A DNA stretch of 64,000 nucleotides, taken from positions 6,205 through 70,204 of the forward strand of contig DASTLR010000007.1 in assembly GCA_035714745.1 (NCBI GenBank), in the 5' to 3' direction. This document shows, in pieces, positions 11,436-55,024 of the stretch. Within the stretch, counting starts at the first letter, position 1. Each line of letters starts with the position of its first letter. A program made the position numbers and the translations under genes. The DNA comes from Minisyncoccota bacterium (GTDB lineage: Bacteria; Patescibacteriota; Minisyncoccia; Phycocordibacterales; UBA6065). Below the pieces are notes generated by a model. The model was given only the letters and a program-made list of their open reading frames with translations. It had not been told where the DNA came from and ran no database searches.

Positions 11436-11705
11436 TTATCTCCTTCGAGATATCCTATAGACTGACAGCATTTCTTTAGTCGCCTTATCGTCTTCGCCCT
11501 TTCTCATCTGATCGGCCACATGTGTTTTCAGATGATGCTCGAGAACAAGGTTCTCAAAGCCTGAAAGAGCCTCCTTAACGGCGGCAGACTGGTTGATAAT
11601 GTCTATGCAGTATTTACCGTCTAAAAGCATTTTCTCGAGGCCGCTAATTTGCCCAGCCGCGATCCTAAGCCTTCTAACAGCATTTTTCAGGTAATCGCTT
11701 TCCAT
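11436..11705 (-). CDS. csoR: CsoR/RcnR-family copper-sensing repressor
   Basis: RLRIAAGQISGLEKML...YCIDIINQSAAV...LEHHLKTH matches the CsoR four-helix bundle, including the Cu ligands Cys and His-x-x-x-His. Confidence 0.85.
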   Translation of the reverse strand: MESDYLKNAVRRLRIAAGQISGLEKMLLDGKYCIDIINQSAAVKEALSGFENLVLEHHLKTHVADQMRKGEDDKATKEMLSVYRISRRR

Positions 11706-11712
11706 AGCTTAA

Positions 11713-11733
11713 GTATACCCCTAGGGGGTATAC
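11713..11733. promoter_or_regulatory. CsoR-type operator: perfect palindrome GTATACCCC-TAG-GGGGTATAC
   Basis: Nine-bp perfect inverted repeat around TAG, immediately upstream of the csoR start. It resembles the known GC-tract CsoR operators (TACCCnnnGGGGTA). Confidence 0.6.
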
Positions 11734-11770
11734 CCGCAAGAGCGTCGGTGGATAACTTTTATGGATCTAC

Positions 11771-13054
11771 TTAATTCAAAACGGTGATCTTCTTGTTCCT
11801 AAGAACAATCTTTGATTTAAAACATGTTAGTAAATCTCTCTTTTCAAAAATGTTACCCTCTTTTATTAAATACTTCGCGTAGTTCCTTATATCGATATCT
11901 TTGACTGAATAATCACATGTTTCTCCACCAAGAATTCCGATGCTAAATTTTTTATGCCTTTCGATTTCCTGATGAAGCTTCTTCCGCAACCCGGATTGGT
12001 CAAGATCTATCTTTTCAGTAAATTCGAGTAGTTGTTTTACGAGATCACCCTCTTCGAGATACCCGTTCTTGCAATGCGTATCTCTAATTTTCGTGCATCC
12101 GTAATAAATGTATTTTTTAACAGACCCATCGGCAAGATTCTTGAACTTCTCTTGAGCGGTAATACCTGATCCGCAAAGACCGCATGTCATGAGTTTCGTG
12201 AAAGCAAATTCTTTATTCGTCTCTTTACTCTTTCGCTGGCATCTCAGTTGATTCTGAACTTGGTCAAAAAGCTCCTTAGAGATGAGCGGGGTGTGTTTGC
12301 CTTGGTAGAACTTTGCGCTGTTCTTGGGATATTCAAAAGTGCCGTAATAGAAATGATTGTGGAGGATAATGAAAATATTGCTTAGCGTGAGAGGCTTTCC
12401 GCTCCGAGCAGTGAATTCCCGGTCTTTGAGCCACTGATACACTTTCTTTCCGCCCCAACCCTCATAGCCTACTTTCTCAAATACTTGTTTGATGATCGGG
12501 GCGCGAATCGGATCTATGTGGACCACGCAAACCTCATTCACGTTCGAACTATTCACGTATCCAGTAGGCGCAGGAGCAGGCCATAGGCCCATTTCGCACC
12601 TCGTCCTCAGTCCCCGCTTCACGTTCACGCTCTTATTGTCGTTCTCGAGCTTCGCCTGCGAGCAAAGAATCATGAGGAGGAACTTGTCATTCGGGTTGTT
12701 TGTGAACTTCTGCCCATATGTCCGTATCTCGGCGAGTAATTTCTGATCCATGAGATCCACGACCGAACCGAGGTCTCCTGCGTTTCGGGATAATCGGTCT
12801 GGATGCCAGACGAGAATGCCGTCGTACTTCTTCTCTCGTATCTCGTCGAGGAGCTTCTTGAACTCCTCTCGCTGTCCCGAAGCTTTTGCTGAATGCGCTT
12901 CCCTTTTTATATCGACTATCTCTAGCCCCTCCCGCTCCGCGATCTTCTTCATCTCGTTTACCTGCGATTCGATCGACAGAGCCTGCTTCTCCTCTTGTTC
13001 GGTAGACTTGCGGGCGTACAGGCAATATCGGACCTTGGTTGCTTGTTGTTCCAT
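11771..13054 (-). CDS. large serine recombinase (resolvase/integrase family)
   Basis: The N-terminal catalytic motif YARKSTEQEEKQALSIESQ (Ser nucleophile), a recombinase domain, and the C-terminal zinc ribbon CGLCGS...YYGC are present. Confidence 0.88.
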   Translation of the reverse strand: MEQQATKVRYCLYARKSTEQEEKQALSIESQVNEMKKIAEREGLEIVDIKREAHSAKASGQREEFKKLLDEIREKKYDGILVWHPDRLSRNAGDLGSVVDLMDQKLLAEIRTYGQKFTNNPNDKFLLMILCSQAKLENDNKSVNVKRGLRTRCEMGLWPAPAPTGYVNSSNVNEVCVVHIDPIRAPIIKQVFEKVGYEGWGGKKVYQWLKDREFTARSGKPLTLSNIFIILHNHFYYGTFEYPKNSAKFYQGKHTPLISKELFDQVQNQLRCQRKSKETNKEFAFTKLMTCGLCGSGITAQEKFKNLADGSVKKYIYYGCTKIRDTHCKNGYLEEGDLVKQLLEFTEKIDLDQSGLRKKLHQEIERHKKFSIGILGGETCDYSVKDIDIRNYAKYLIKEGNIFEKRDLLTCFKSKIVLRNKKITVLN

Positions 13055-20970: not shown

Positions 20971-21573
20971 TTGCTCATGACCGATAAGATATTCTCTAAG
21001 CTGAACGTATACGACCAGATCGGATATCTGCTTGTTGGCAGCATCGCCTCACTGGTTTTCCTTTTCAACAACAAATTACTCGGCTCCCCTATCGACATCC
21101 CGGCTTTTGATATCAGTAGCCTAATCATATGGGCGATCGTGGCTTATTTCGTGGGTCATATCGTCCACGCAGTTGCCAATATAATCATCAAAGAAAATAA
21201 AACCGATTTCTCCGAATCGGACAAGGAGATACTTGAACGAGGAAAGCACTTCTTCGACCTCAAGAAGCAAGAACTCAATGCCACATATCTCTTGTGTTAC
21301 ATGCTCGCGTCTGCAAAAGATGTAACGGGCCAAGTCCAATCATTCAATGCGTACTACAGCCTGTATCGGGGCTGGTTCATAATTTTCCTGCTAGAGATGA
21401 ATTTCCTTTCATTTACGAGCATAATGCATGGCTTCAGCCTGCACATCCTCATACTTTTCAGCATAGCCTCATTCATTGCCTATCTCACCCTCAATAGAAC
21501 ACGAAGGTTCTACGGCTACTCTCGCGCAAAGACACTTCAAACATTTACTCTGATTGAGAAACTCAAACTATAA
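20971..21573 (+). CDS. multi-TM membrane protein (candidate effector)
   Basis: About four hydrophobic helices. The start is 10 nt after the JAB gene stop, and the 3' end overlaps the next gene. Confidence 0.45.
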   Translation: MLMTDKIFSKLNVYDQIGYLLVGSIASLVFLFNNKLLGSPIDIPAFDISSLIIWAIVAYFVGHIVHAVANIIIKENKTDFSESDKEILERGKHFFDLKKQELNATYLLCYMLASAKDVTGQVQSFNAYYSLYRGWFIIFLLEMNFLSFTSIMHGFSLHILILFSIASFIAYLTLNRTRRFYGYSRAKTLQTFTLIEKLKL

Positions 21574-22141
21574 TCAGAATCGTATGAAGCCAAACAATTT
21601 TCTTCAGAAAATCGGCATAGAAAGAGGAAATCTCAAACCGTTTTCACTCTTCGTGCTGGGCATTATCCTAGTCACAACCGCATTTACTGTAACTCCATTC
21701 TTTGCAACTATCGGTCCAGCAATTCTTATCATCGTCTTTGGTGTCTTTTTCTCAATCCTGTGGTTTGTTGCTGGCTATGCTGTATTCCGCTCACTCCTCG
21801 TCGCGAGCGTCGGGCTCAGCTTCATCATATTCATAGGCCAGTCTTACTGCGACCTGCCTATTGACGAGCGCGTGGCAGACAGCGCGCTGATGACCCTTAT
21901 TGGATTCGGCTTCATCTATGTGACAGCGCAATTCGGCAAGTCTCTCTACAAGGAATTATTCGGAGACAAAGATGCAAAGGAAGATTGGAAGCAAAAGGGC
22001 ATGATTGGCGTTCTTAAAGAGATCAATCAGAACAAGCATTCATGGCTCGCGCTCATCACATATGGACTGCTTATAAGTCTGTTCATCTGGCAGGTTAATA
22101 GCGTAATCAGACCAATTATTAACGGCCTCTGCGTGTACTAA
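21554..22141 (+). CDS. multi-TM membrane protein (candidate effector)
   Basis: About four or five hydrophobic helices. Last gene of the overlapping operon. Confidence 0.45.
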   Translation: MRNSNYNQNRMKPNNFLQKIGIERGNLKPFSLFVLGIILVTTAFTVTPFFATIGPAILIIVFGVFFSILWFVAGYAVFRSLLVASVGLSFIIFIGQSYCDLPIDERVADSALMTLIGFGFIYVTAQFGKSLYKELFGDKDAKEDWKQKGMIGVLKEINQNKHSWLALITYGLLISLFIWQVNSVIRPIINGLCVY

Positions 22142-22142
22142 T

Positions 22143-22313
22143 ATGGCATTTGCAACGAATGGTACGCCCAACATGAAGGGTCTTGAGGATAAGGTAGAGA
22201 AGCTCCAAGAACTGCTCAAGAAAAGGAGGTGGTGGGAAACTACCTGGGTGCAGATCATTGCCTTTATAGGGGCAGTTGCTGGTATCGTCAGCCTCTATAC
22301 CCTTTTCGAGTAG
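22143..22313 (+). CDS. small C-terminally anchored membrane protein (56 aa)
   Basis: MAFATNGTPNMKGLEDKVEKLQELLKKRRWWETTWVQIIAFIGAVAGIVSLYTLFE. Not in the ORF track (<60 aa). It starts 2 nt after the previous gene. Confidence 0.3.
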   Translation: MAFATNGTPNMKGLEDKVEKLQELLKKRRWWETTWVQIIAFIGAVAGIVSLYTLFE

Positions 22314-22335
22314 CCACTGTCGCTCCCAAACAAAA

Positions 22336-22633
22336 TATGGAGAAAAAGAATTACAGGATGAAGGCCGAGGCAGGAACCTTCAAGCTCACCCTGAATGTGC
22401 TGAGGGTCACTCACATGAGGCCCGGCTTCAAGCGTTTCCTAAGAAGGGTCTGGGCAGGCTTTTCACTAAGTGGGGATACCACTAAACATCCCGAGGGAGT
22501 GATACTGAGCAGGGTCGTCGATAGAGAGAACAATAAGTACGAAGAGCTGGTAATCGATAATAAGACCGGCACGGTCGCACGATCCGTACAAGAACCGCTA
22601 ACCGAGCATTTCTCCAGATCAAAGAAATCATAA
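22336..22633 (+). CDS. hypothetical protein
   Basis: Internal Met (MEKKNYRMKAEAG) of the 22229-22633 ORF. No domain recognised. Confidence 0.3.
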
Positions 22634-22755
22634 TCCTTAAAGCAGTGTCACTTTTGTCACATTTTGGTCGCTCAGGACGGGTCGATTTGATAAAATTAGG
22701 AACGTCACAAAAGCGTTGCTGGGTATAGCATCGTTTGGTTCTATCCCGAGAACGC

Positions 22756-22792
22756 CAACCAAGTTGAGAGTAGTTTATATCGCTCAGGACGG
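22756..22792. repeat. attR-like direct repeat with degenerate tRNA-Gln 3' fragment
   Basis: CAACCAAGTTGAGAGTAGTTTATATCGCTCAGGACGG. A degenerate copy of the tRNA T-arm/acceptor lies upstream (TTGGTTCtATcCCgAGaaCGcCAACCAAG). An extra copy of TCGCTCAGGACGGGT sits at 22667-22681. Confidence 0.65.
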
Positions 22793-22841
22793 GTGCTCTA
22801 GTATCAAAGTTACAAATCAGAAAATCTGATACAATTTTGGT

Positions 22842-23822
22842 ATGAAAAATTATCAAGGGGATTTTATAGCTCCTACAGTCATCGGGTTAATTATTTTAAT
22901 TGCGGTAGGCGGTGGAATATATTTTGTTCAAAAGAAAAAAGTTCAGCCGATAACCGAAGGAACAAATAACGTCTCTGGCTTAACAACCTACAAAAACGAA
23001 CAGTATGACTTTGAGATTTCATACGATTCGTCAAAGCATTCTATAAAAGCAGAGGGAGATAAAATCGTCGGTTATACAGATTACGATTTAATTTTTAACG
23101 AATCTAATAAGCGCGGATTTGAAGAGAGTCATACGTTGTATGCCTTTCCGAAAGAAGTTGCTGAAACAATAGACAATGCTATTAAGAGAGTGATCCTCAC
23201 ATCTGAACATAATCCTAAGGATGTGTGTAGAGCATTGCCCCTATCAGAAATGGGCGATTATACAAGAAGGTACATAGACTGCGGTGACACTGAGACTGAG
23301 TATAAAAATTACGAGAAGCTCCCAACCTATTATGTTGGACGTTCCCCATCAGCATACTTCCTCTACAATCCATCGTATCCCCATGTTTTCTTTTACGCCG
23401 TGGGAGATCAAGTAAGTGACAATTTCTTGCTTACAGGCTTGAAATTCACCGGAGCAAGCAATGTGCCATCAATCAAAGTTACTTCTCCAAATGGCGGTGA
23501 AACTTGGAAAATGTCCGAACAGAAATCTATTGTTTGGACTTCATCTAACCTGCCAAGTAATGCAAAGGTTGGCATTAGGCTGAGGTCAGAAAAAGATTTT
23601 TCCTATTTCTGTGATCCTGTTGGGGCAGAAGTTTTAGCAAAGCAGGGTTCATTTGCTATCACCCCAGCAACTACTGTATGTGTCGGCATCACATCAAGTC
23701 GACCAGAAGACAGATTCAAGCTCACTGCTGGTAGGTATAAAGTCGAGCTCGGTGCCACGAATTACGGCGGTGGAAAGGGGCTAATGGATTCAAGTGACAA
23801 TTATTTCACCATTACGAATTAA
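22842..23822 (+). CDS. hypothetical membrane-anchored extracellular protein
   Basis: N-terminal TM anchor. The gene is low-GC. No recognisable domain. Confidence 0.4.
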   Translation: MKNYQGDFIAPTVIGLIILIAVGGGIYFVQKKKVQPITEGTNNVSGLTTYKNEQYDFEISYDSSKHSIKAEGDKIVGYTDYDLIFNESNKRGFEESHTLYAFPKEVAETIDNAIKRVILTSEHNPKDVCRALPLSEMGDYTRRYIDCGDTETEYKNYEKLPTYYVGRSPSAYFLYNPSYPHVFFYAVGDQVSDNFLLTGLKFTGASNVPSIKVTSPNGGETWKMSEQKSIVWTSSNLPSNAKVGIRLRSEKDFSYFCDPVGAEVLAKQGSFAITPATTVCVGITSSRPEDRFKLTAGRYKVELGATNYGGGKGLMDSSDNYFTITN

Positions 23823-23843
23823 AAGTCATCTCGTCTTTAGGTT

Positions 23844-25289
23844 ATGATCACGAAAGAGCTCATTGAACATATAAAAAATCAATCCGCTCTAGGGAAAAAT
23901 TCTCTGGATATAAAACAGGAGCTGATTTCTAGTGGTGGATGGTCAGCGTCAGATATAGATGAAGCGTTCAGGGTTATTAACTCCACACCAAGAAGATCGG
24001 TCCTGCCTTATATCTTTTCTGCTATATTATTCCTAGTTTTAGGAGGTGTCGCATTCGCGCATATAACGAAAAGCGCTCAACCCAACCTACGTCAGACCGT
24101 AGAAAATCCTGATGTCTCAGAAATGATATTTAGAGATAATTCTATAAATATCGATAACTCTAAAAATACCGTCGTCCCACCGATTCAAGACGAGACTAAA
24201 GAAGCTCCACTCGCTCAGGACCAAAAAACTCCTACAGAAAATCAGAAACCGATCAAAAGCTACAATCTCGGCACTATTTCTATCCGAGCAATCGTTGCAA
24301 ATATAGATGAAGTGAGCGATAAGTTTGGATCCTATGGGATGAAATTTGGTAAGTCGAAATTATCCGAAGTAGACCAAGCACTTCAGAGATTGAATACGTT
24401 TGTAAAGAAAAGTTCATACGAAAAAGCACAATTAGAATGGACTACCTCGGGTGTATATGAACTTGGGAGGGGTGTATGTGACAAGAGTTCGTATGGAGCC
24501 AAGGTAAATGATCTCATCGAACGAGCTTTGAAAGCTGCTGATTCAGAAAGTCCACTCGAAGACTATTCTTTCTACGTTGTAATTCATCCATTGCCCGATT
24601 GTCCGAGTGGTGAATATTGGAGTTATGAAGGACGGGGTCAATTCAAGACATATAGTCTCAATGGTAGGACCGTCAACCTAAGAGGCATACATATAAGCGA
24701 CTTGTCCGATCATTATCTCTTTCATGAATTTGGACACTCACTTGGCTATAAACTAGAAAAAGGAATCGGTCACCCCGACTATATGAACTGTCCAATAACA
24801 ACAAATGGCAGTGAAGTTCAAATCGCTATATCAAATACCTGTCGCCATATTTTCGATTTCAATAGTGGTGCAACACCGATCTACACAATGATGTCTACGC
24901 CAAACACTTTGGCTGATTATAGTGCTATCGAAAAGGAAACTGCTGATTGGTTGGATGGTTCCGATATCATTACAGCGACATCCGGAGAATATCTTTTATC
25001 AGCACTCGAACAAGCTGGACCAAGTCCGAAAGCTCTAAAAATTCCTATCCGGGGAACAAACTATACGGCATACGTGTCCTTCAGACTGCTCGGTGACAAC
25101 AAACCAAATGGTGTTATTTTGGATATAACAAACGGCGGAGTCGATAGCTTCCTTGTGACCAACAGTGCTGACAAAAATCAGCCACTCAAAATAGGGACAT
25201 CTTACCGTCTGGGGACAAATGGTCCGATCATACGGGTTATCAATATCGAAGATAATTCTGCTTCGGTCAGTATATCTAGCTCAAATTAA
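23844..25289 (+). CDS. membrane-anchored zincin-like metallopeptidase (HEFGH)
   Basis: N-terminal region followed by a TM helix. LFHEFGHSLGY contains the HExxH zinc-binding motif. Confidence 0.5.
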   Translation: MITKELIEHIKNQSALGKNSLDIKQELISSGGWSASDIDEAFRVINSTPRRSVLPYIFSAILFLVLGGVAFAHITKSAQPNLRQTVENPDVSEMIFRDNSINIDNSKNTVVPPIQDETKEAPLAQDQKTPTENQKPIKSYNLGTISIRAIVANIDEVSDKFGSYGMKFGKSKLSEVDQALQRLNTFVKKSSYEKAQLEWTTSGVYELGRGVCDKSSYGAKVNDLIERALKAADSESPLEDYSFYVVIHPLPDCPSGEYWSYEGRGQFKTYSLNGRTVNLRGIHISDLSDHYLFHEFGHSLGYKLEKGIGHPDYMNCPITTNGSEVQIAISNTCRHIFDFNSGATPIYTMMSTPNTLADYSAIEKETADWLDGSDIITATSGEYLLSALEQAGPSPKALKIPIRGTNYTAYVSFRLLGDNKPNGVILDITNGGVDSFLVTNSADKNQPLKIGTSYRLGTNGPIIRVINIEDNSASVSISSSN

Positions 25290-51660: not shown

Positions 51661-52542
51661 TTATAAACCTTTTTCTGCTTCCAAGAACATATCGAGATCT
51701 CCTTCTAGGACGGCGTCGATGTTCGAGGTCTCGGCGCCGGTGCGGTGATCCTTGACCATCTTGTAGGGATGCTGGACGTACGAGCGGATCTGGTTGCCCC
51801 ACTCGATGTCGGCGGTCCGGGATATCTGCATGCCCTTTTCCTTGGCCAGGCGCTCCTCCTCGCGGAGCTTGTAGATCTTTGCCTGGAGCATGGCCATGGC
51901 GCGCTCGCGGTTCTGGGCCTGGGAGCGTTCGGACGAGACGTGCACGGACATTTTTGTCGGCAGGTGGATCAGGCGCACGGCGGTCTCGCGCTTATTGACG
52001 TTCTGGCCGCCGGGACCGGACGATTTGGCGAATTCTATCTTTATCTCGTCGGGATTCAGGGGGATGTTCTCAAGCTTGTCGAATTTCGGGATGACCTCGA
52101 CCAGGGAGAACGACGTCTGGCGGAGCTTTTTGGCGTTAAAGGGCGAGATGCGGACCAGGCGGTGGACGCCGGATTCGTTCTTGAGCTCGCCATAGGCTCC
52201 CTTGCCCATGATCTCGAACGAGATATTACGGTAGCCGCCGTGGTCATTCGGGTTGTCGTGGACCAGATAGGTCTGCCAGCCGCGCTTGGCCGCGAAGCGG
52301 GAGTACATCTCGTAGAGCATGCGCGAGAAATCCTCGGCGTCGTCCCCGCCGGCGCCCGAAAATATGGTTACGACGGCGTTGCCCCGCTCGTAGCGCTCGA
52401 CTTCAGCCATGGCGGCCTTGAGCTCGTTCAATTCCTTGAGGATGCCCTGGGCGCGGTCTTTGTCATCCCAAAAAGAGGCCTCGGCCATGAGCGCCTCGAT
52501 CTCTGCTATCCTTTTGCGGGGGTCTGTGGCGGTGTTTGCCAT
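51661..52542 (-). CDS. prfB: peptide chain release factor 2 (no programmed frameshift; shortened domain 1)
   Basis: SPF tripeptide (RISPFNA) and GGQ (SGPGGQNVNK) are present. The FWDD...RAQ N-terminal motif is present, but domain 1 is about 70 aa shorter than E. coli RF2. Confidence 0.85.
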   Translation of the reverse strand: MANTATDPRKRIAEIEALMAEASFWDDKDRAQGILKELNELKAAMAEVERYERGNAVVTIFSGAGGDDAEDFSRMLYEMYSRFAAKRGWQTYLVHDNPNDHGGYRNISFEIMGKGAYGELKNESGVHRLVRISPFNAKKLRQTSFSLVEVIPKFDKLENIPLNPDEIKIEFAKSSGPGGQNVNKRETAVRLIHLPTKMSVHVSSERSQAQNRERAMAMLQAKIYKLREEERLAKEKGMQISRTADIEWGNQIRSYVQHPYKMVKDHRTGAETSNIDAVLEGDLDMFLEAEKGL

Positions 52543-52793: not shown

Positions 52794-52823
52794 TTGAAAA
52801 ACAGCCAGAATTATACTAGTATT
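52794..52823 (+). promoter_or_regulatory. candidate sigma70-type promoter for tRNA-Thr pair
   Basis: TTGAAA, an 18-nt spacer, then TAGTAT. It lies about 26 nt upstream of the tRNA 5' end. Confidence 0.3.
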
Positions 52824-52849: not shown

Positions 52850-53118
52850 GCCAACGTAGCTCAGTCGGTAGAGCACGTCATTGGTGGGTCGTAACCCCTG
52901 CCCACGCGCGCGGCAACGCTCGCGTGAATCCCGAATAACGGTTAAAGCCCTAGCGTCCTTGGACCGGGTCAAGACCGTGGCGCCACGTCTCCATTGACAG
53001 CGCCCGAACGACTGACAAGGGTCTCCGCTCTGCGGAGAAAGATACAGTCTAGTCCTCCCGCAAGGAGAGGTGTTAACGAATGACGAGGTCTCCGGTTCGA
53101 TCCCGGACGTTGGCTCCA
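52850..53118 (+). tRNA. tRNA-Thr (anticodon GGT) interrupted by a group I intron after anticodon position 36
   Basis: Exon 1 (52850-52885) and exon 2 (53079-53118) join into a perfect 76-nt cloverleaf. Acceptor GCCAACG/CGTTGGC, anticodon stem CGTCA/TGACG with loop TTGGT|AA (identical to the E. coli tRNA-Thr GGU loop), T-arm TCCGG-TTCGATC-CCGGA, and CCA. Confidence 0.75.
52886..53078 (+). ncRNA. group I self-splicing intron (193 nt, Azoarcus tRNA-Ile-like insertion site)
   Basis: Begins after U36 (U-G wobble at the 5' splice site) and ends with G (omega G). Contains the R-like element GAACGACTGACA and the S-like element AAGATACAGTCTAGTCC. The same 36/37 insertion position is used by the Azoarcus CAU intron. 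Confidence 0.7.
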
Positions 53119-53131
53119 GACGGAATAGAAC

Positions 53132-53205
53132 GCCACCTTAGTTCAGTGGTAGAACGGCGGTATCGTAAACCGCAGACCCCAGTCCGATTCTGGGCGGTGG
53201 CTCCA
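53132..53205 (+). tRNA. tRNA-Thr (anticodon CGT)
   Basis: Acceptor GCCACCT/CGGTGGC (one U-C mismatch at 7-66), D-stem GTTC/GAAC, anticodon stem GCGGT/ACCGC with loop ATCGTAA, T-arm CCCAG-TCCGATT-CTGGG, and CCA. Confidence 0.7.
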
Positions 53206-53248
53206 CGAAGTTGCTTCATGAACATTATCAGCTAATGCTCATGACAAT

Positions 53249-53710
53249 ATGCCTAATCCTAAAAAACCTAGGATCCTTTGTCCTATCTGCGGCAAAGAAC
53301 CCTATCGCTCTTTCTACAAATATTGCAGCAATGCGTGTCAGCAAGAATATCAATACCGTCAATATATTGAAAAATGGAAATCAGGAAAAGTGACCGGACT
53401 CCAAAGCATCGGCGTCGTCAACCCGTATATCAAAAAATACCTAAGAAGAAAATTCAATGATACGTGCATGCTGTGCGGCTGGGCGCAAAAAAATCCTATA
53501 ACCAATAAAGTTCCGCTGGTCGCAGACCATATCGATGGCGATTGGCGCAATAACGTCGAGAGCAATCTGCGGCTTATCTGCCCTAATTGCGACTCGCTCA
53601 CGCCGACATACTCAGGCCTAAATCGGGGCAAGGGTCGTCCCCATAGGACGCCGAGCAGAAGAGCTGCTCAGGCGAAGCTCCTGCTTACTCAGAGATCTCC
53701 CCTCTCCTGA
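53249..53710 (+). CDS. HNH endonuclease (free-standing, low-GC)
   Basis: LVADHIDGDWRNNVESNLRLICPNCD is the HNH motif with Zn Cys pairs. N-terminal CPICGK...C zinc ribbon. The gene is about 41% GC against about 62% in its surroundings. Confidence 0.78.
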   Translation: MPNPKKPRILCPICGKEPYRSFYKYCSNACQQEYQYRQYIEKWKSGKVTGLQSIGVVNPYIKKYLRRKFNDTCMLCGWAQKNPITNKVPLVADHIDGDWRNNVESNLRLICPNCDSLTPTYSGLNRGKGRPHRTPSRRAAQAKLLLTQRSPLS

Positions 53711-54389
53711 ACCTATTGACCAATTCGTGCGCCAGGCGCGTGGGCTCGGGCAAGCGATAGCCGCGCAGACAGGTCCGCACGACCTCCAGGGCGTCGTCGA
53801 CGCTCGTCATATGTCCCGGCGAGATGACGAGGGAATTTGCTCGCTGTTTCGACTTCAGGGCATAGCCGATCGCCTCGCCAGTCTTGGGATCGACCACGGG
53901 AGAAGCCTCGCCGACCCTCTGCGGCTCCTCGTACGAGCCATAGAGCCGCGACTTGGCGCAGCCGATGGTCGGGATGCCCGTGACGATGCCCAGGTGCGCG
54001 GCGATGCCCAAACGGCGCGGATGGGCGATGCCCTGCCCATCGACCATGATGAGGTCAGGGCTGTGACCCAGCTTCTCTCTGAGCTTTTCCAGGCAGGCCA
54101 GCAGGCCCGGAATCTCCCTGAACGACAGCAGGCCGGGTATATAGGGAAAGCCTATCCGCATGCGGACGACCGCATGGCCTATCGGCTCGAGCCTCGGATA
54201 CGTCATAGCCGCGACGCCCGCAAAAAGCTCCGTGCCAAAGCGCTCCATGGATACGTCAACGCCGGCGATGACCGTGACCGGCTTGCCCTGGCCGCGCAGA
54301 CCCGGCAAAGGCTGGATGCGGAGCTCCTCCCGCAGGCGGTCCTGCAGGGCTATAGCTTCCCGTGACGTTCTGGCTTGCATATGCTTCAT
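53685..54389 (-). CDS. nfi: endonuclease V (deoxyinosine 3' endonuclease)
   Basis: IAGVDVS...FPYIPGLLSFREIPGLL matches the EndoV catalytic core. Start at the internal Met. Confidence 0.8.
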   Translation of the reverse strand: MKHMQARTSREAIALQDRLREELRIQPLPGLRGQGKPVTVIAGVDVSMERFGTELFAGVAAMTYPRLEPIGHAVVRMRIGFPYIPGLLSFREIPGLLACLEKLREKLGHSPDLIMVDGQGIAHPRRLGIAAHLGIVTGIPTIGCAKSRLYGSYEEPQRVGEASPVVDPKTGEAIGYALKSKQRANSLVISPGHMTSVDDALEVVRTCLRGYRLPEPTRLAHELVNRFRRGEISE

Positions 54390-54478: not shown

Positions 54479-55024
54479 ATGAGCATTATCCCGCCTGAAG
54501 TCATCGAACGCGCGAAAAAGGGCGACCTTATCGCCTTTGAGGAGATCGTCTCCACCTTCGAAAAGCCCCTGTGGAACTACCTGGTCCGCCTGGTCGGCAG
54601 CAAGGACGACGCAGAGGACCTGATCCAGGACACCTTCGTCAAGGTATACAAGCACCTCAAGAACATCGATTCCACCAGGAACATCAAATCCTGGATATAT
54701 ACGATCGCCACCAATACGGCCTACGACTTCCTCCGCAAGAAGAAGCGCGAGTCCACCACGGCTCTTGACGAAGAATACGAAACAAAGCCTGATAACGCAT
54801 CGTACTACAGTGTATCGGTAGAAGATAGCATTGAAAGGAAGGATGTGACCGCGGCGATAGACCAGCTCGACCTTCTGTACAGAGGGCCGATAATTCTCTA
54901 TTACAAAGATGGCTTCAGCTATGAAGAGATAGCCGAGATGCTCTCGATCCCGATCAATACGCTCAAGACCCGGCTCTCGCGGGCAAAGAAGCAATTGGCG
55001 AATCTGCTGGTGAACTACGAATAG
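54479..55024 (+). CDS. ECF-type RNA polymerase sigma-70 factor
   Basis: Region 2 (LWNYLVRLVGSKDDAEDLIQDTFVKVY) and region 4 (EEIAEMLSIPINTLKTRLSRAKKQL). Confidence 0.85.
   Translation: MSIIPPEVIERAKKGDLIAFEEIVSTFEKPLWNYLVRLVGSKDDAEDLIQDTFVKVYKHLKNIDSTRNIKSWIYTIATNTAYDFLRKKKRESTTALDEEYETKPDNASYYSVSVEDSIERKDVTAAIDQLDLLYRGPIILYYKDGFSYEEIAEMLSIPINTLKTRLSRAKKQLANLLVNYE

Follow-up and report, generated by a model that had tools for sequence, protein, structure and literature searches.

A free-standing HNH endonuclease gene beside tRNA-Thr(CGU) in a Candidatus Paceibacterota genome, read as a probable homing endonuclease of tRNA-Thr loci

The window, by which we mean the whole 64-kb stretch of DNA that was analysed, comes from a metagenome-assembled genome of Candidatus Paceibacterota (CPR) and carries an intact 153-aa open reading frame that combines a zinc ribbon with an HNH core (Table 1). 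It has tRNA-Thr(CGU) on one side and nfi on the other. As an earlier sequence-only reading of this DNA had stated, it is outside the intron of the neighbouring tRNA-Thr(GGU). That reading gave the span as 53211-53710, of which the end is right and the start is not: translation begins at the ATG at 53249, whereas the TTG at 53211 opens an unrelated frame of 60 aa at about the onset of a low-GC stretch. Its distance of 130 nt to the tRNA-Thr pair likewise holds from the end of tRNA-Thr(GGU) but not from the pair, with the ATG located 43 nt past the 3' end of tRNA-Thr(CGU). On the other side, nfi is convergent with the HNH gene, and the last 26 nt of the HNH frame overlap its 3' end.

Table 1. 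Features of the tRNA-Thr/HNH locus, in positions of the window
Feature	Position	Strand	Basis
Promoter-like site TTGAAA-17-TAGTAT, upstream of the tRNA-Thr pair	52794..52822	+	Consensus scan alone
tRNA-Thr(GGU) exon 1: acceptor, D arm, 5' strand of the anticodon stem, loop through GGT	52850..52885	+	ARAGORN
Group I-like intron, 193 nt, ORF-less, after anticodon nucleotide 36	52886..53078	+	Homologous inserts, covariation
tRNA-Thr(GGU) exon 2	53079..53118	+	ARAGORN with introns allowed
tRNA-Thr(CGU), constant partner, probable target/homology arm	53132..53205	+	tRNA scan; Rfam tRNA, 54 bits
Spacer between tRNA-Thr(CGU) and HNH gene, 43 nt	53206..53248	+	Comparison with family loci
Zinc-ribbon and HNH endonuclease gene, 153 aa, intact, free-standing	53249..53710	+	ORF, profile and fold matches
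nfi (endonuclease V), host gene, right edge of the insertion	53685..54389	-	Synteny with relatives

The HNH gene is compositionally foreign. GC content falls to 0.40-0.41 at 53200-53500 against 0.58-0.66 in the flanking DNA, which bears out the low-GC patch noticed earlier; it is 0.48 across the whole frame and 0.556 on average in the window. The GC3 of the gene is 0.51 (0.42-0.48 in its first 280 nt), and that of its neighbours (nfi, prfB, ftsE, a sigma-factor gene and orf133) is 0.74-0.89. Further low-GC stretches occur in the window at about 11.5-12.2 kb and 21.3-25.2 kb.

On the plus strand, the stretch from the tRNAs to the HNH gene contains neither a promoter-like site nor a terminator. 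The site upstream of the pair is the sole candidate promoter for a putative tRNA-Thr(GGU)/tRNA-Thr(CGU)/HNH transcription unit; the consensus scan behind it returned 2 sites where 0.8 were expected. In the window, the HNH gene is probably co-transcribed with both tRNA-Thr genes. Most family members have a conserved promoter and palindrome cassette upstream of the HNH frame, in which the palindrome (CGACCA-N16-TGGTCG) overlaps the -35 box. The window spacer lacks this cassette and has TGCTCATGA in common with the syntenic L025/L089 copy.

The encoded protein contains the motif ADHIDGDWRNNVESNLRLICPNCD quoted in the sequence-only reading, and both its four-cysteine zinc ribbon and its intact HNH core are real. 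The N-terminal motif CPICGK...YCSNACQ is invariant across homologues. In an alignment of 25 sequences, 52 columns are invariant along the full length, among them D93, N101, N102, N106, N113 and D115 as well as a second set of cysteine pairs, C73/C76 and C111/C114, which flanks the HNH core; the catalytic H94 of the DH pair is kept in at least 90% of these sequences. Matches to PHROG HNH families (E = 8e-18, 2e-14 and 8e-14) and to the PADLOC 'homing endonuclease' model (E = 8e-11), together with the similarity of the predicted fold to phage HNH endonucleases (TM 0.63-0.72), uphold the earlier identification as a free-standing homing-type HNH endonuclease; Pfam HNH_3 scored 16.9 bits, under its cutoff of 24.8. 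The AlphaFold model (mean pLDDT 82) places two strands (91-94 and 107-110) ahead of a helix (112-115), which corresponds to a beta-beta-alpha metal finger. By its motifs and this predicted fold, the protein falls into the HNH/His-Me finger class. Weak fold matches include McrA, the Cas9 HNH domain, Cap5, T4 endonuclease VII and I-HmuI. Fold and sequence searches of the PDB returned no close solved relative, the best Foldseek match being DotN (E 1.6e-3), which covers the zinc part. A role in a defence system was considered and rejected: PADLOC gave only generic HNH and ZorE-like matches, and partner genes are absent nearby.

The intron-containing tRNA-Thr(GGU), which the sequence-only reading had also proposed, spans 52850-53118 and is found by ARAGORN when introns are allowed; a default tRNA scan and Rfam leave it uncalled. 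When spliced, its exons match the intron-less tRNA-Thr(GGU) of two relatives, L085 and L086, at every position, and homologous inserts occupy the same site of this tRNA in 23 loci. In a consensus structure of these introns (RNAalifold), 47 pairs were predicted, 27 of them with compensatory changes, which fall in P1, P2, P6, P8 and P9. The insert has the features of a group I intron: a U.G pair at the 5' splice site in P1 (15 of 16 intron sequences), a terminal G in all introns, and a P3-P9 core with an invariant P7 (GACUG/CAGUC), where the P3 pseudoknot (CCC/GGG) was recognised solely by eye. The assignment rests on covariation in place of Rfam, since RF00028 gave no match in the window at E <= 10 and none at E <= 0.1 in nine loci that carry the homologous intron. 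A 197-aa frame beside the intron of L172 was examined as a possible LAGLIDADG enzyme and discarded, with Pfam returning weak HTH matches only. In the literature, we found no paper that connects the HNH family with tRNA-Thr or with tRNA introns of CPR bacteria, and only a brief mention of group I introns in some CPR tRNAs (PMC8172020).

The HNH protein belongs to a tight family (55-91% identity), which forms one separate CPR cluster at 50% identity and occurs in at least 245 GTDB species-representative genomes, with at least 1771 homologue clusters. We compared 80 species-representative HNH loci, 78 of which had enough sequence to read the tRNA neighbour. In all 78, a tRNA-Thr(CGU) gene adjoins the free-standing HNH gene on the same strand, downstream of it in 76 and upstream in 2; the window thus shows the minority arrangement. 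The frame reads into the 5' end of the downstream tRNA in 41 of the 76 loci, and in 29 of these 41 the stop codon is a TAG at tRNA nucleotides 8-10. Every HNH-bearing genome retains an intact tRNA-Thr(CGU) beside the gene. All 80 sampled copies are intact and the catalytic and zinc-binding residues are invariant, and we therefore conclude that the gene is under strong selection, which could also be compatible with a function useful to the host. The HNH gene follows the neighbouring tRNA-Thr(CGU) and not the nearby intron in hundreds of ultra-small CPR bacteria, and its place in Parcubacteria is always beside that tRNA gene.

Presence of the gene is patchy even among close relatives, which we compared within the same sigma factor/nfi/tRNA/prfB context. 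The window and L089 carry the HNH gene at the same locus, and L085, L086, L088, L173 and L174 do not. The closest relative, L085 (84% mean identity over five proteins), has no HNH gene at the syntenic site; here and in L086, a gap of 4-24 nt that lacks the HNH gene separates tRNA-Thr(CGU) from the stop codon of nfi. The tRNA-Thr(CGU) of the window differs at 20 positions from the allele common to the HNH-less relatives, and its tRNA-Thr(GGU) exons differ from theirs at none. Within the clade of the window, such divergent tRNA-Thr(CGU) alleles are confined to the two HNH-bearing genomes, and it is chiefly the anticodon arm in which HNH-linked alleles depart from the alleles of HNH-less relatives. 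L088 and L174, which lack the gene, have larger spacers, where tblastn detected no HNH remnants; these two spacers contain inverted tRNA-like 3' fragments. A metagenome scan with the nfi alignment recovered only distant nfi homologues (40-54% identity) without synteny, none of them with the HNH gene and one with tRNA-Thr(GGU).

Several features of the wider family point to a cassette of about 0.5-0.6 kb that moves horizontally into tRNA-Thr(CGU) loci and contains an upstream promoter and palindrome, the HNH frame, and part or all of tRNA-Thr(CGU). HNH proteins that are 83-91% identical occur in hosts whose flanking proteins share 40-56% identity, and blastn reveals nucleotide islands of 84-90% identity around the gene in diverged genomes. 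These islands begin about 30-90 nt upstream of the ATG and end 15-61 nt downstream of the stop codon, and the flanks outside them are 65-70% identical or unalignable. The GC3 of the HNH gene is below that of the host in 66 of 73 loci. In 11 loci, a displaced 5' tRNA fragment that ends at the anticodon stem or loop is fused to the cassette. L076 and L029 have donor tRNA nucleotides 1-34 and 1-23, respectively, after the HNH gene and then a different, complete tRNA; L051 has an additional 3' tRNA fragment. Family members thus display the signs of co-conversion, namely islands, tRNA fragments and divergent tRNA-Thr(CGU). For the copy in the window, acquisition is suggested only by its GC3, by the divergent tRNA-Thr(CGU) and by the lack of the gene in the closest relative; its nearest homologue is only 72% identical, and there is no sign of a recent transfer into this lineage.

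Taken together, we consider the HNH gene to be an intact member of a family of free-standing homing endonucleases dedicated to tRNA-Thr loci, with a probability of roughly 70%. What speaks against this reading is the intact tRNA-Thr(CGU) retained beside every copy, in which no consistent resistant variant was seen, and, in the window, the missing promoter cassette and the minority position relative to the tRNA. The sequence-only reading had gone further and proposed a link of the enzyme to the group I intron; its homing-type nuclease tied to the tRNA-Thr locus stands, and the link to the intron is not supported. Collaborative homing, in which the HNH enzyme would cut the intron-less tRNA-Thr(GGU) at the insertion site and thereby mobilise the ORF-less intron in trans, has precedents in F-CphI with the cyanophage psbA intron and MobE with the Aeh1 nrdA intron (PMC3984707). 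It would fit the co-occurrence of both elements in the window and L089 and the lack of both in five syntenic relatives, as well as the breakpoints in the tRNA-Thr(CGU) anticodon arm, the equivalent of the intron site. Introns are also commoner in HNH-bearing genomes (23 of 39 versus 1 of 8, Fisher p = 0.02, with a small control sample and phylogenetically non-independent data points), a weak excess (p = 0.02-0.04) that two selfish elements using one hotspot could explain as well. We nevertheless regard collaborative homing as improbable. Of the 80 HNH loci, no more than 17 have the intron next to the gene; an intron-less tRNA-Thr(GGU) adjoins it in 13, and 45 have no tRNA-Thr(GGU) within 250 nt. 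The gene is present in many genomes without an adjacent intron, an outcome that the sequence-only reading had itself named as a refutation. In two loci with the intron-less neighbour, L039 and L031, the anticodon arm is identical to the exon context in the window, and this uninterrupted site argues against cleavage at the insertion site. Conversely, L172 has the intron and no HNH gene. Pairwise identities of introns and HNH genes are uncorrelated (Spearman -0.11), nearest neighbours by one differ from nearest neighbours by the other, and the universal partner is tRNA-Thr(CGU). The intron is a separate selfish element that shares one locus with the HNH gene.

Other origins of the gene were weighed against the same data. 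A domesticated nuclease, vertically inherited, co-transcribed with tRNA-Thr and repeatedly lost, might serve the host in DNA repair, recombination or uptake; such a history would agree with the full-length conservation, the lack of decayed copies, the partial tracking of host GC3 by HNH GC3 (slope 0.47, r = 0.70), and the position of the window and L089 copies at one site in syntenic genomes, with 66% identity between the two copies and 76% between host proteins. It is unlikely, however, in view of the high-identity islands in diverged hosts, the tRNA fragments and partial duplications, the absence from the closest relative, the detection in only about 245 species genomes of a very large clade, and nearest outgroups that are phage homing-type HNH genes. 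The remnant of a prophage or integrative element would also account for phage genes as the closest non-CPR homologues, and tRNA genes are common integration sites. Yet the insertion measures merely about 0.5 kb, it has no integrase or other phage gene nearby, it is flanked by conserved host genes whose order is also kept (sigma factor, nfi, prfB, ftsE, ftsX), and the duplicated tRNA pieces lie 5' rather than 3' as is typical of integrase sites, which makes such a remnant the most improbable origin considered here. Only slightly less remote is an addictive toxin-antidote pair, in which the HNH protein would attack the tRNA-Thr of its host, as RNA or gene, and the linked tRNA-Thr(CGU) would be its resistant replacement. 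The cassette does carry tRNA sequence along, and the concentration of allelic differences in the anticodon arm would suit this idea, but HNH/His-Me finger enzymes of such type are DNases (PMC5714182), and a consistent resistant ('immune') tRNA-Thr(CGU) variant was sought across the HNH-bearing genomes and not found. Co-conversion accounts for the same data more simply.

To our knowledge, free-standing homing endonucleases of tRNA clusters have been studied experimentally in few phages only (T4 SegB, T5 F-Tfl). The HNH gene is best read as a chromosomal variant of this kind. The segB gene of T4 lies free-standing between tRNA genes within a tRNA cluster, and its product recognises a conserved tRNA-gene motif, cuts inside the tRNA genes of relatives without SegB, and drives the inheritance of its own gene and of neighbouring tRNA genes; the SegB stop codon was proposed to be lost through tRNA processing (PMC2330249). 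The HNH protein is predicted, from genome comparison, to behave in a similar way. In SegB, too, the frame abuts a tRNA, the geometry seen in more than half of the HNH loci with a downstream tRNA. SegB differs in its GIY-YIG fold, in its preference for a tRNA-Asn site with recognition of the T-arm, and in its setting in a phage genome under co-infection rather than in a bacterial chromosome. The F-Tfl genes of T5 also lie within a tRNA cluster (PMC2330249), and the T5 tRNA-region enzymes (F-TflI, F-TflII, F-TflIV; hegA) share the HNH superfamily with the protein studied here, to which hegA is 35% identical over 60%.

Phage homologues of the HNH protein are 35-45% identical, and their genes are situated within tRNA clusters; in 7 of 10 sampled homologue groups, the gene directly next to them is a tRNA-Thr. 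A T5-like HNH gene beside tRNA-Thr is 41% identical to the window protein over 76%. In the T5-like phages HdH2 and MET_P1-88, unnamed HNH genes of about 130 aa abut tRNA-Thr(UGU), and, as in the CPR family, the frame of such phage genes stops at the 5' end of tRNA-Thr or inside it. They differ in being phage-borne and in their partner, tRNA-Thr(UGU) instead of CGU; when a common target motif was sought in the two tRNAs, they had only the anticodon loop, and sometimes an ACGGT/ACCGT stem, in common. Among the coding genes within tRNA arrays of mycobacteria and mycobacteriophages, those of the HNH homing type are the most widespread and were proposed to reshape tRNA repertoires; unlike the CPR family, with which we compare them by description, they have no reported tie to a particular tRNA isotype (PMC5966550). 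In the known collaborative pairs, the endonucleases target the intron insertion site, whereas the HNH family tracks tRNA-Thr(CGU), is mostly found without an intron, and coexists with uninterrupted insertion sites. I-HmuI (PDB 1u3e), the sole solved structure reached by sequence profile, shares the motif 'lv(a)DH.DGN..NN...NLR' in a weak match (E = 0.26 over 24 residues only). It is an intron-encoded nicking enzyme with another DNA-binding architecture and no N-terminal zinc ribbon.

As a homing endonuclease of tRNA-Thr loci, the HNH protein would be made at a low level, from its own promoter in the members that have one. Where the stop codon lies inside the tRNA 5' end, as it often does in these members, it would be removed by RNase P processing. 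The protein would then bind tRNA-Thr gene DNA in genomes without the cassette and nick or cut in or near the anticodon arm, a target and cut site that we infer solely from the recombination breakpoints. Recombinational repair from an HNH-bearing donor would copy the cassette and adjoining donor tRNA sequence into the recipient. A broader and more tentative version of this reading, to which we give less than even odds, is that one ancient clade of small zinc-ribbon and HNH enzymes has specialised in tRNA-Thr genes, both in CPR chromosomes and in phages of Proteobacteria, Firmicutes, Actinobacteria and Cyanobacteria, and would work as a gene drive on tRNA alleles. The enzyme would break the resident tRNA-Thr near the anticodon arm, and the cassette would rebuild the gene with the tRNA sequence it carries; the nuclease might also have opened the matching site in the sister tRNA-Thr(GGU) to invasion by the group I intron. 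If this were true, an essential tRNA gene would be continually replaced and mosaicised.

For annotation, the locus calls for caution: the cassette often reads into the tRNA, and standard tools miss the adjacent intron-containing tRNA. It also tells the HNH gene and the intron apart, as selfish elements with no more than a hotspot in common. The HNH family would be a chromosomal counterpart of the phage tRNA-cluster enzymes, widespread in CPR and always attached to the gene of one tRNA isoacceptor. Should the proposed mechanism hold, tRNA-Thr gene DNA would be a defined and easily tested substrate for an endonuclease of 150 aa. The same mechanism would account for the mosaic and divergent tRNA-Thr(CGU) genes between close CPR relatives, and the cassette would mark DNA exchange among these unculturable organisms.

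We found that the HNH gene of the window, a free-standing zinc-ribbon and HNH ORF beside a pair of tRNA-Thr genes, has tRNA-Thr(CGU) as its constant partner, and not the neighbouring group I intron. Its relatives were found in at least 245 species-representative genomes of GTDB, each a metagenome-assembled genome of CPR/Parcubacteria type. Of the best 80 of these loci, 78 have tRNA-Thr(CGU) immediately beside the HNH gene and on its strand, and the remaining 2 are truncated by contig ends. The other side is variable: within 250 nt upstream of the HNH gene lies tRNA-Thr(GGU) with the intron (17 of 80 loci), tRNA-Thr(GGU) without it (13), tRNA-Gly(CCC) (5), or no called tRNA or a contig end (45). 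The sequence-only reading had seen a homing-type free-standing gene that may have mobilized, or may still mobilize, the adjacent intron; profile matches and locus context bear out the first half, whereas adjacency in only 17 loci speaks against the second, as collaborative homing (PMC3984707), the model behind that idea, needs intron and endonuclease to co-occur across genomes. In 76 loci the HNH gene comes first, with the tRNA at -112 to +47 nt; the ORF reads into the tRNA in 41 loci, and in 29 of these its stop is a TAG at tRNA nucleotides 8-10. The window, L025/L089 and L078 show the minority order, in which tRNA-Thr(CGU) precedes the HNH gene by 43-79 nt.

Features of the HNH locus in the window
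Feature	Position	Strand	Remark
prfB	51661-52542	-	
Promoter-like site	52794-52822	+	
tRNA-Thr(GGU)	52850-53118	+	split by 193-nt insert; exons 52850-52885, 53079-53118
Intron in tRNA-Thr(GGU)	52886-53078		
Spacer between the tRNA-Thr genes	53119-53131		13 nt
tRNA-Thr(CGU)	53132-53205	+	
Spacer between tRNA-Thr(CGU) and HNH ORF	53206-53248		43 nt
HNH ORF	53249-53710	+	153 aa; confirmed as a real ORF
nfi (endonuclease V)	53685-54389	-	26-nt overlap with HNH tail
Sigma-70-type factor	54479-55024	+	

From this gene order, the HNH start lies 43 nt past the tRNA pair; the 130 nt first proposed for the pair is correct for the intron-containing tRNA. The scaffold around the window spans 306 kb and belongs to a metagenome-assembled genome of Candidatus Paceibacterota (CPR/Parcubacteria). 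The low-GC patch noticed initially is confirmed (GC 0.40-0.41 over 53200-53500), and its signal is more telling at synonymous sites, where the HNH gene has a GC3 of 0.51 (0.42-0.48 over the first 280 nt) versus 0.74-0.89 in five neighbouring genes. GC also drops markedly elsewhere in the window, at ~11500-12200 and 21300-25200, to 0.33-0.44 (measured over 300 nt) from a window median of 0.57; these stretches, too, may be foreign or otherwise atypical. The tRNA-Thr(CGU) of the window has an A at position 32 and an unusual T-loop, GTCCGAT, with C in place of the conserved T55, a variant found again in several CPR tRNA-Thr genes.

The HNH protein gave a sub-threshold match to HNH_3 and nothing else in Pfam, and is matched by PHROG HNH families (8e-18 to 8e-14) and by the PADLOC 'homing endonuclease' model (8e-11). 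Two four-cysteine sets (C11, C14, C26, C30 and C73, C76, C111, C114) and the DH...N...N...N.D catalytic core are near-completely conserved in an alignment of 25 homologues. The AlphaFold model (pLDDT 82) contains the beta-beta-alpha finger; its top structural matches are phage HNH endonucleases (TM 0.63-0.72), and its match to solved structures is weak. Profile matches, conserved residues and predicted fold together thus point to an intact zinc-ribbon and HNH nuclease. The family comprises at least 1771 clusters at 90% identity, every one 63-72% identical to the window protein, and forms one cluster at 50% identity within a superfamily of 536 clusters (E <= 1e-30). The window copy is intact, its nearest homologue being only 72% identical, and no decayed copies were seen among the loci examined.

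Several lines of evidence indicate that the gene moves as a cassette. HNH proteins that are 83-91% identical occur in genomes whose flanking proteins share only 40-56% identity (HNH versus flanks: L059/L060, 91% and 56%; L010/L065, 85% and 53%; L051/L059, 83% and 51%), and over 1899 locus pairs the two identities are barely correlated (r = 0.14). In blastn comparisons the HNH similarity forms an island of 84-90% nucleotide identity, from ~30-90 nt before the ATG to 15-61 nt past the stop, into or through the tRNA, with syntenic flanks 65-70% identical or unalignable. The GC3 of the HNH gene is below that of its host in 66 of 73 loci, with a slope of 0.47. Eleven loci hold the 5' part of a tRNA-Thr-like gene, not called as a tRNA and running from nucleotide 1 to ~27-33 and ending at the anticodon stem or loop, which is fused to the cassette ~90 nt before the HNH ATG and differs in sequence from the 5' part of the complete downstream tRNA. 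Elsewhere a partial tRNA lies between the HNH gene and a different, complete one: nucleotides 1-34 ahead of a tRNA-Thr(CGU) in L076, and nucleotides 1-23 ahead of a complete tRNA in L029. L051 has an additional 3' tRNA fragment. By their sequence, these fragments are footprints of earlier invasions.

Syntenic relatives of the window, located via nfi, give the same picture at close range. The closest, L085 (84% mean identity over five proteins), lacks the HNH gene, as do L086, L088, L173 and L174; L085 and L086 have just 4-24 nt between tRNA-Thr(CGU) and the nfi stop, while L089 (76% identity to the window) carries the gene at the window's site. Members of this clade have tRNA-Thr(GGU) exons with either no difference or 2. 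Their tRNA-Thr(CGU) is the same across HNH-less genomes (0-5 differences) but has 20 changed positions in the window and 12 in L089, the majority of them in the anticodon arm; this fits co-conversion, or replacement of this tRNA at cassette arrival. In the HNH-less L172 and L173, the hotspot that holds the HNH gene elsewhere is taken by other small ORFs. The one in L172 (3238-3831) encodes 197 aa with an HTH at the N-terminus and ends 41 nt ahead of the intron-containing tRNA-Thr(GGU); that in L173 (3937-4302) is acidic, 121 aa long and placed exactly between both tRNA-Thr genes. Neither matched a Pfam family. The nfi/tRNA-Thr(CGU) spacers of L088 (3619-3880) and L174 (3170-3599) contain repeated tRNA-like 3' fragments, composed of T-arm, hairpin insert and 'AGGTGGCTCA', which point the other way from the resident tRNAs.

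The insert in tRNA-Thr(GGU) is, judged from its sequence, a compact group I intron. In 23 loci (L006 3695-3944, L008 3660-3928 and L172 3873-4120, among others) a homologue interrupts the tRNA at the identical point, following anticodon nucleotide 36; together they form an ORF-less family, 174-210 nt long, that occupies the tRNA-Thr(GGU) anticodon loop in Parcubacteria. Covariation strongly supports this family: of the 47 base pairs in the RNAalifold consensus, 27 show compensatory changes. The U.G pair of P1 falls on the 5' splice site, P7 (GACUG/CAGUC) is invariant and every intron ends in G. Rfam RF00028 did not detect the family in the window or related loci. The intron is loosely tied to the HNH gene: L172 has the intron without the HNH gene, and among the 13 loci with an intron-less tRNA-Thr(GGU), L039 and L031 have an anticodon arm identical to the window's exon context. 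In the 18 loci with both, intron identity does not correlate with HNH identity (Spearman -0.11) and nearest neighbours differ too. An association appears in frequency, the intron being somewhat commoner with the HNH gene (18/31 adjacent, p = 0.04, or 23/39 overall, p = 0.02) than in a small, phylogenetically clustered control (1/8).

Group I introns have been noted in passing in some CPR tRNAs (PMC8172020). For the intron-bearing tRNA-Thr(GGU), ARAGORN often wrongly reports an intron-containing tRNA-Arg(gcg) or tRNA-His(gtg). Another HNH-bearing genome has a different ~211-nt intron in tRNA-Asp(GTC), with a group I S-element-like 'GAAGATATAGTCC' (L035 801-1086). Both strands of L015 6287-6409 match Rfam mir-9261 at 51-55 bits, under the gathering score of 86; a long palindromic hairpin of this CPR genome is the probable explanation.

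Most of the loci L005-L084 share a conserved non-coding segment ~100 nt upstream of the HNH start (e.g. L060 3935-4000), with the pattern ATCAAC.TACGACCAC..TAA..TTGAC...TGGTCG, then TATAAT. The -35 TTGAC lies within an imperfect palindrome, CGACCA-N16-TGGTCG, present in 48 of 78 loci, and the TATAAT-like box merely 6-9 nt before the ATG. This arrangement suggests a promoter giving a leaderless transcript, and the palindrome is possibly an operator. This segment is missing from the window copy, where the sole promoter-like site in the vicinity precedes tRNA-Thr(GGU), so the gene is probably co-transcribed there with both tRNAs.

A tblastn search of 50,697 phage records found homologues at 35-45% identity in 232, of which ten groups were sampled for context. 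The HNH ORF runs 15 nt into the start of tRNA-Thr(UGU) in Enterococcus phage iF6 (182 aa), ends at, or 20 nt before, tRNA-Thr(UGU) in T5-like HdH2 and MET_P1-88, and overlaps an unannotated tRNA-Thr(UGU) in Synechococcus phage DSL-LC03. It follows tRNA-Thr(UGU) after 52 nt in E. coli jumbo phage vB_Ec-M-J, 76 nt in Xanthomonas phage XbC2 and 0 nt in Raoultella phage Ro1, and lies 47 nt past tRNA-Thr(CGU) and tRNA-Thr(GGU) in Streptomyces phage Forrest. It adjoins tRNA-Val in Synechococcus phage RN05-S and tRNA-Gly in Streptomyces phage PumpkinSpice, and crAss-like phage cr53_1 has no nearby tRNA. A direct tRNA-Thr neighbour in 7 of 10 groups far exceeds chance for a cluster of ~20 tRNAs, which argues that the DNA of the tRNA-Thr gene itself is what this clade recognizes. 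Small homologous HNH genes adjoin or overlap tRNA-Thr genes in phages of very different hosts (L176, L178, L180, L182, L183, L184, L186, L187), and the records of MET_P1-88, iF6 and DSL-LC03 leave several of these ORFs or tRNAs unannotated.

No publication on this family, or on its linkage to tRNA-Thr, turned up in our literature search. Among described systems, the nearest are T4 SegB, located in a tRNA cluster and recognizing a tRNA-gene motif, with stop codon removal by tRNA processing proposed (PMC2330249), the T5 F-Tfl HNH endonucleases, whose genes lie in the tRNA region of T5 (cited in PMC2330249 and PMC5714182), and the HNH genes of mycobacterial tRNA arrays (PMC5966550). At the level of sequence comparison, our data demonstrate site fidelity, horizontal movement of a ~0.5-0.6 kb cassette, co-transfer of tRNA sequence and patchy presence among close relatives. 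The evidence best supports a free-standing gene of the homing-endonuclease kind that is dedicated to tRNA-Thr loci; its enzyme would nick or cut the DNA of the tRNA-Thr(CGU) gene near the anticodon arm, and its cassette would then spread via recombinational repair.
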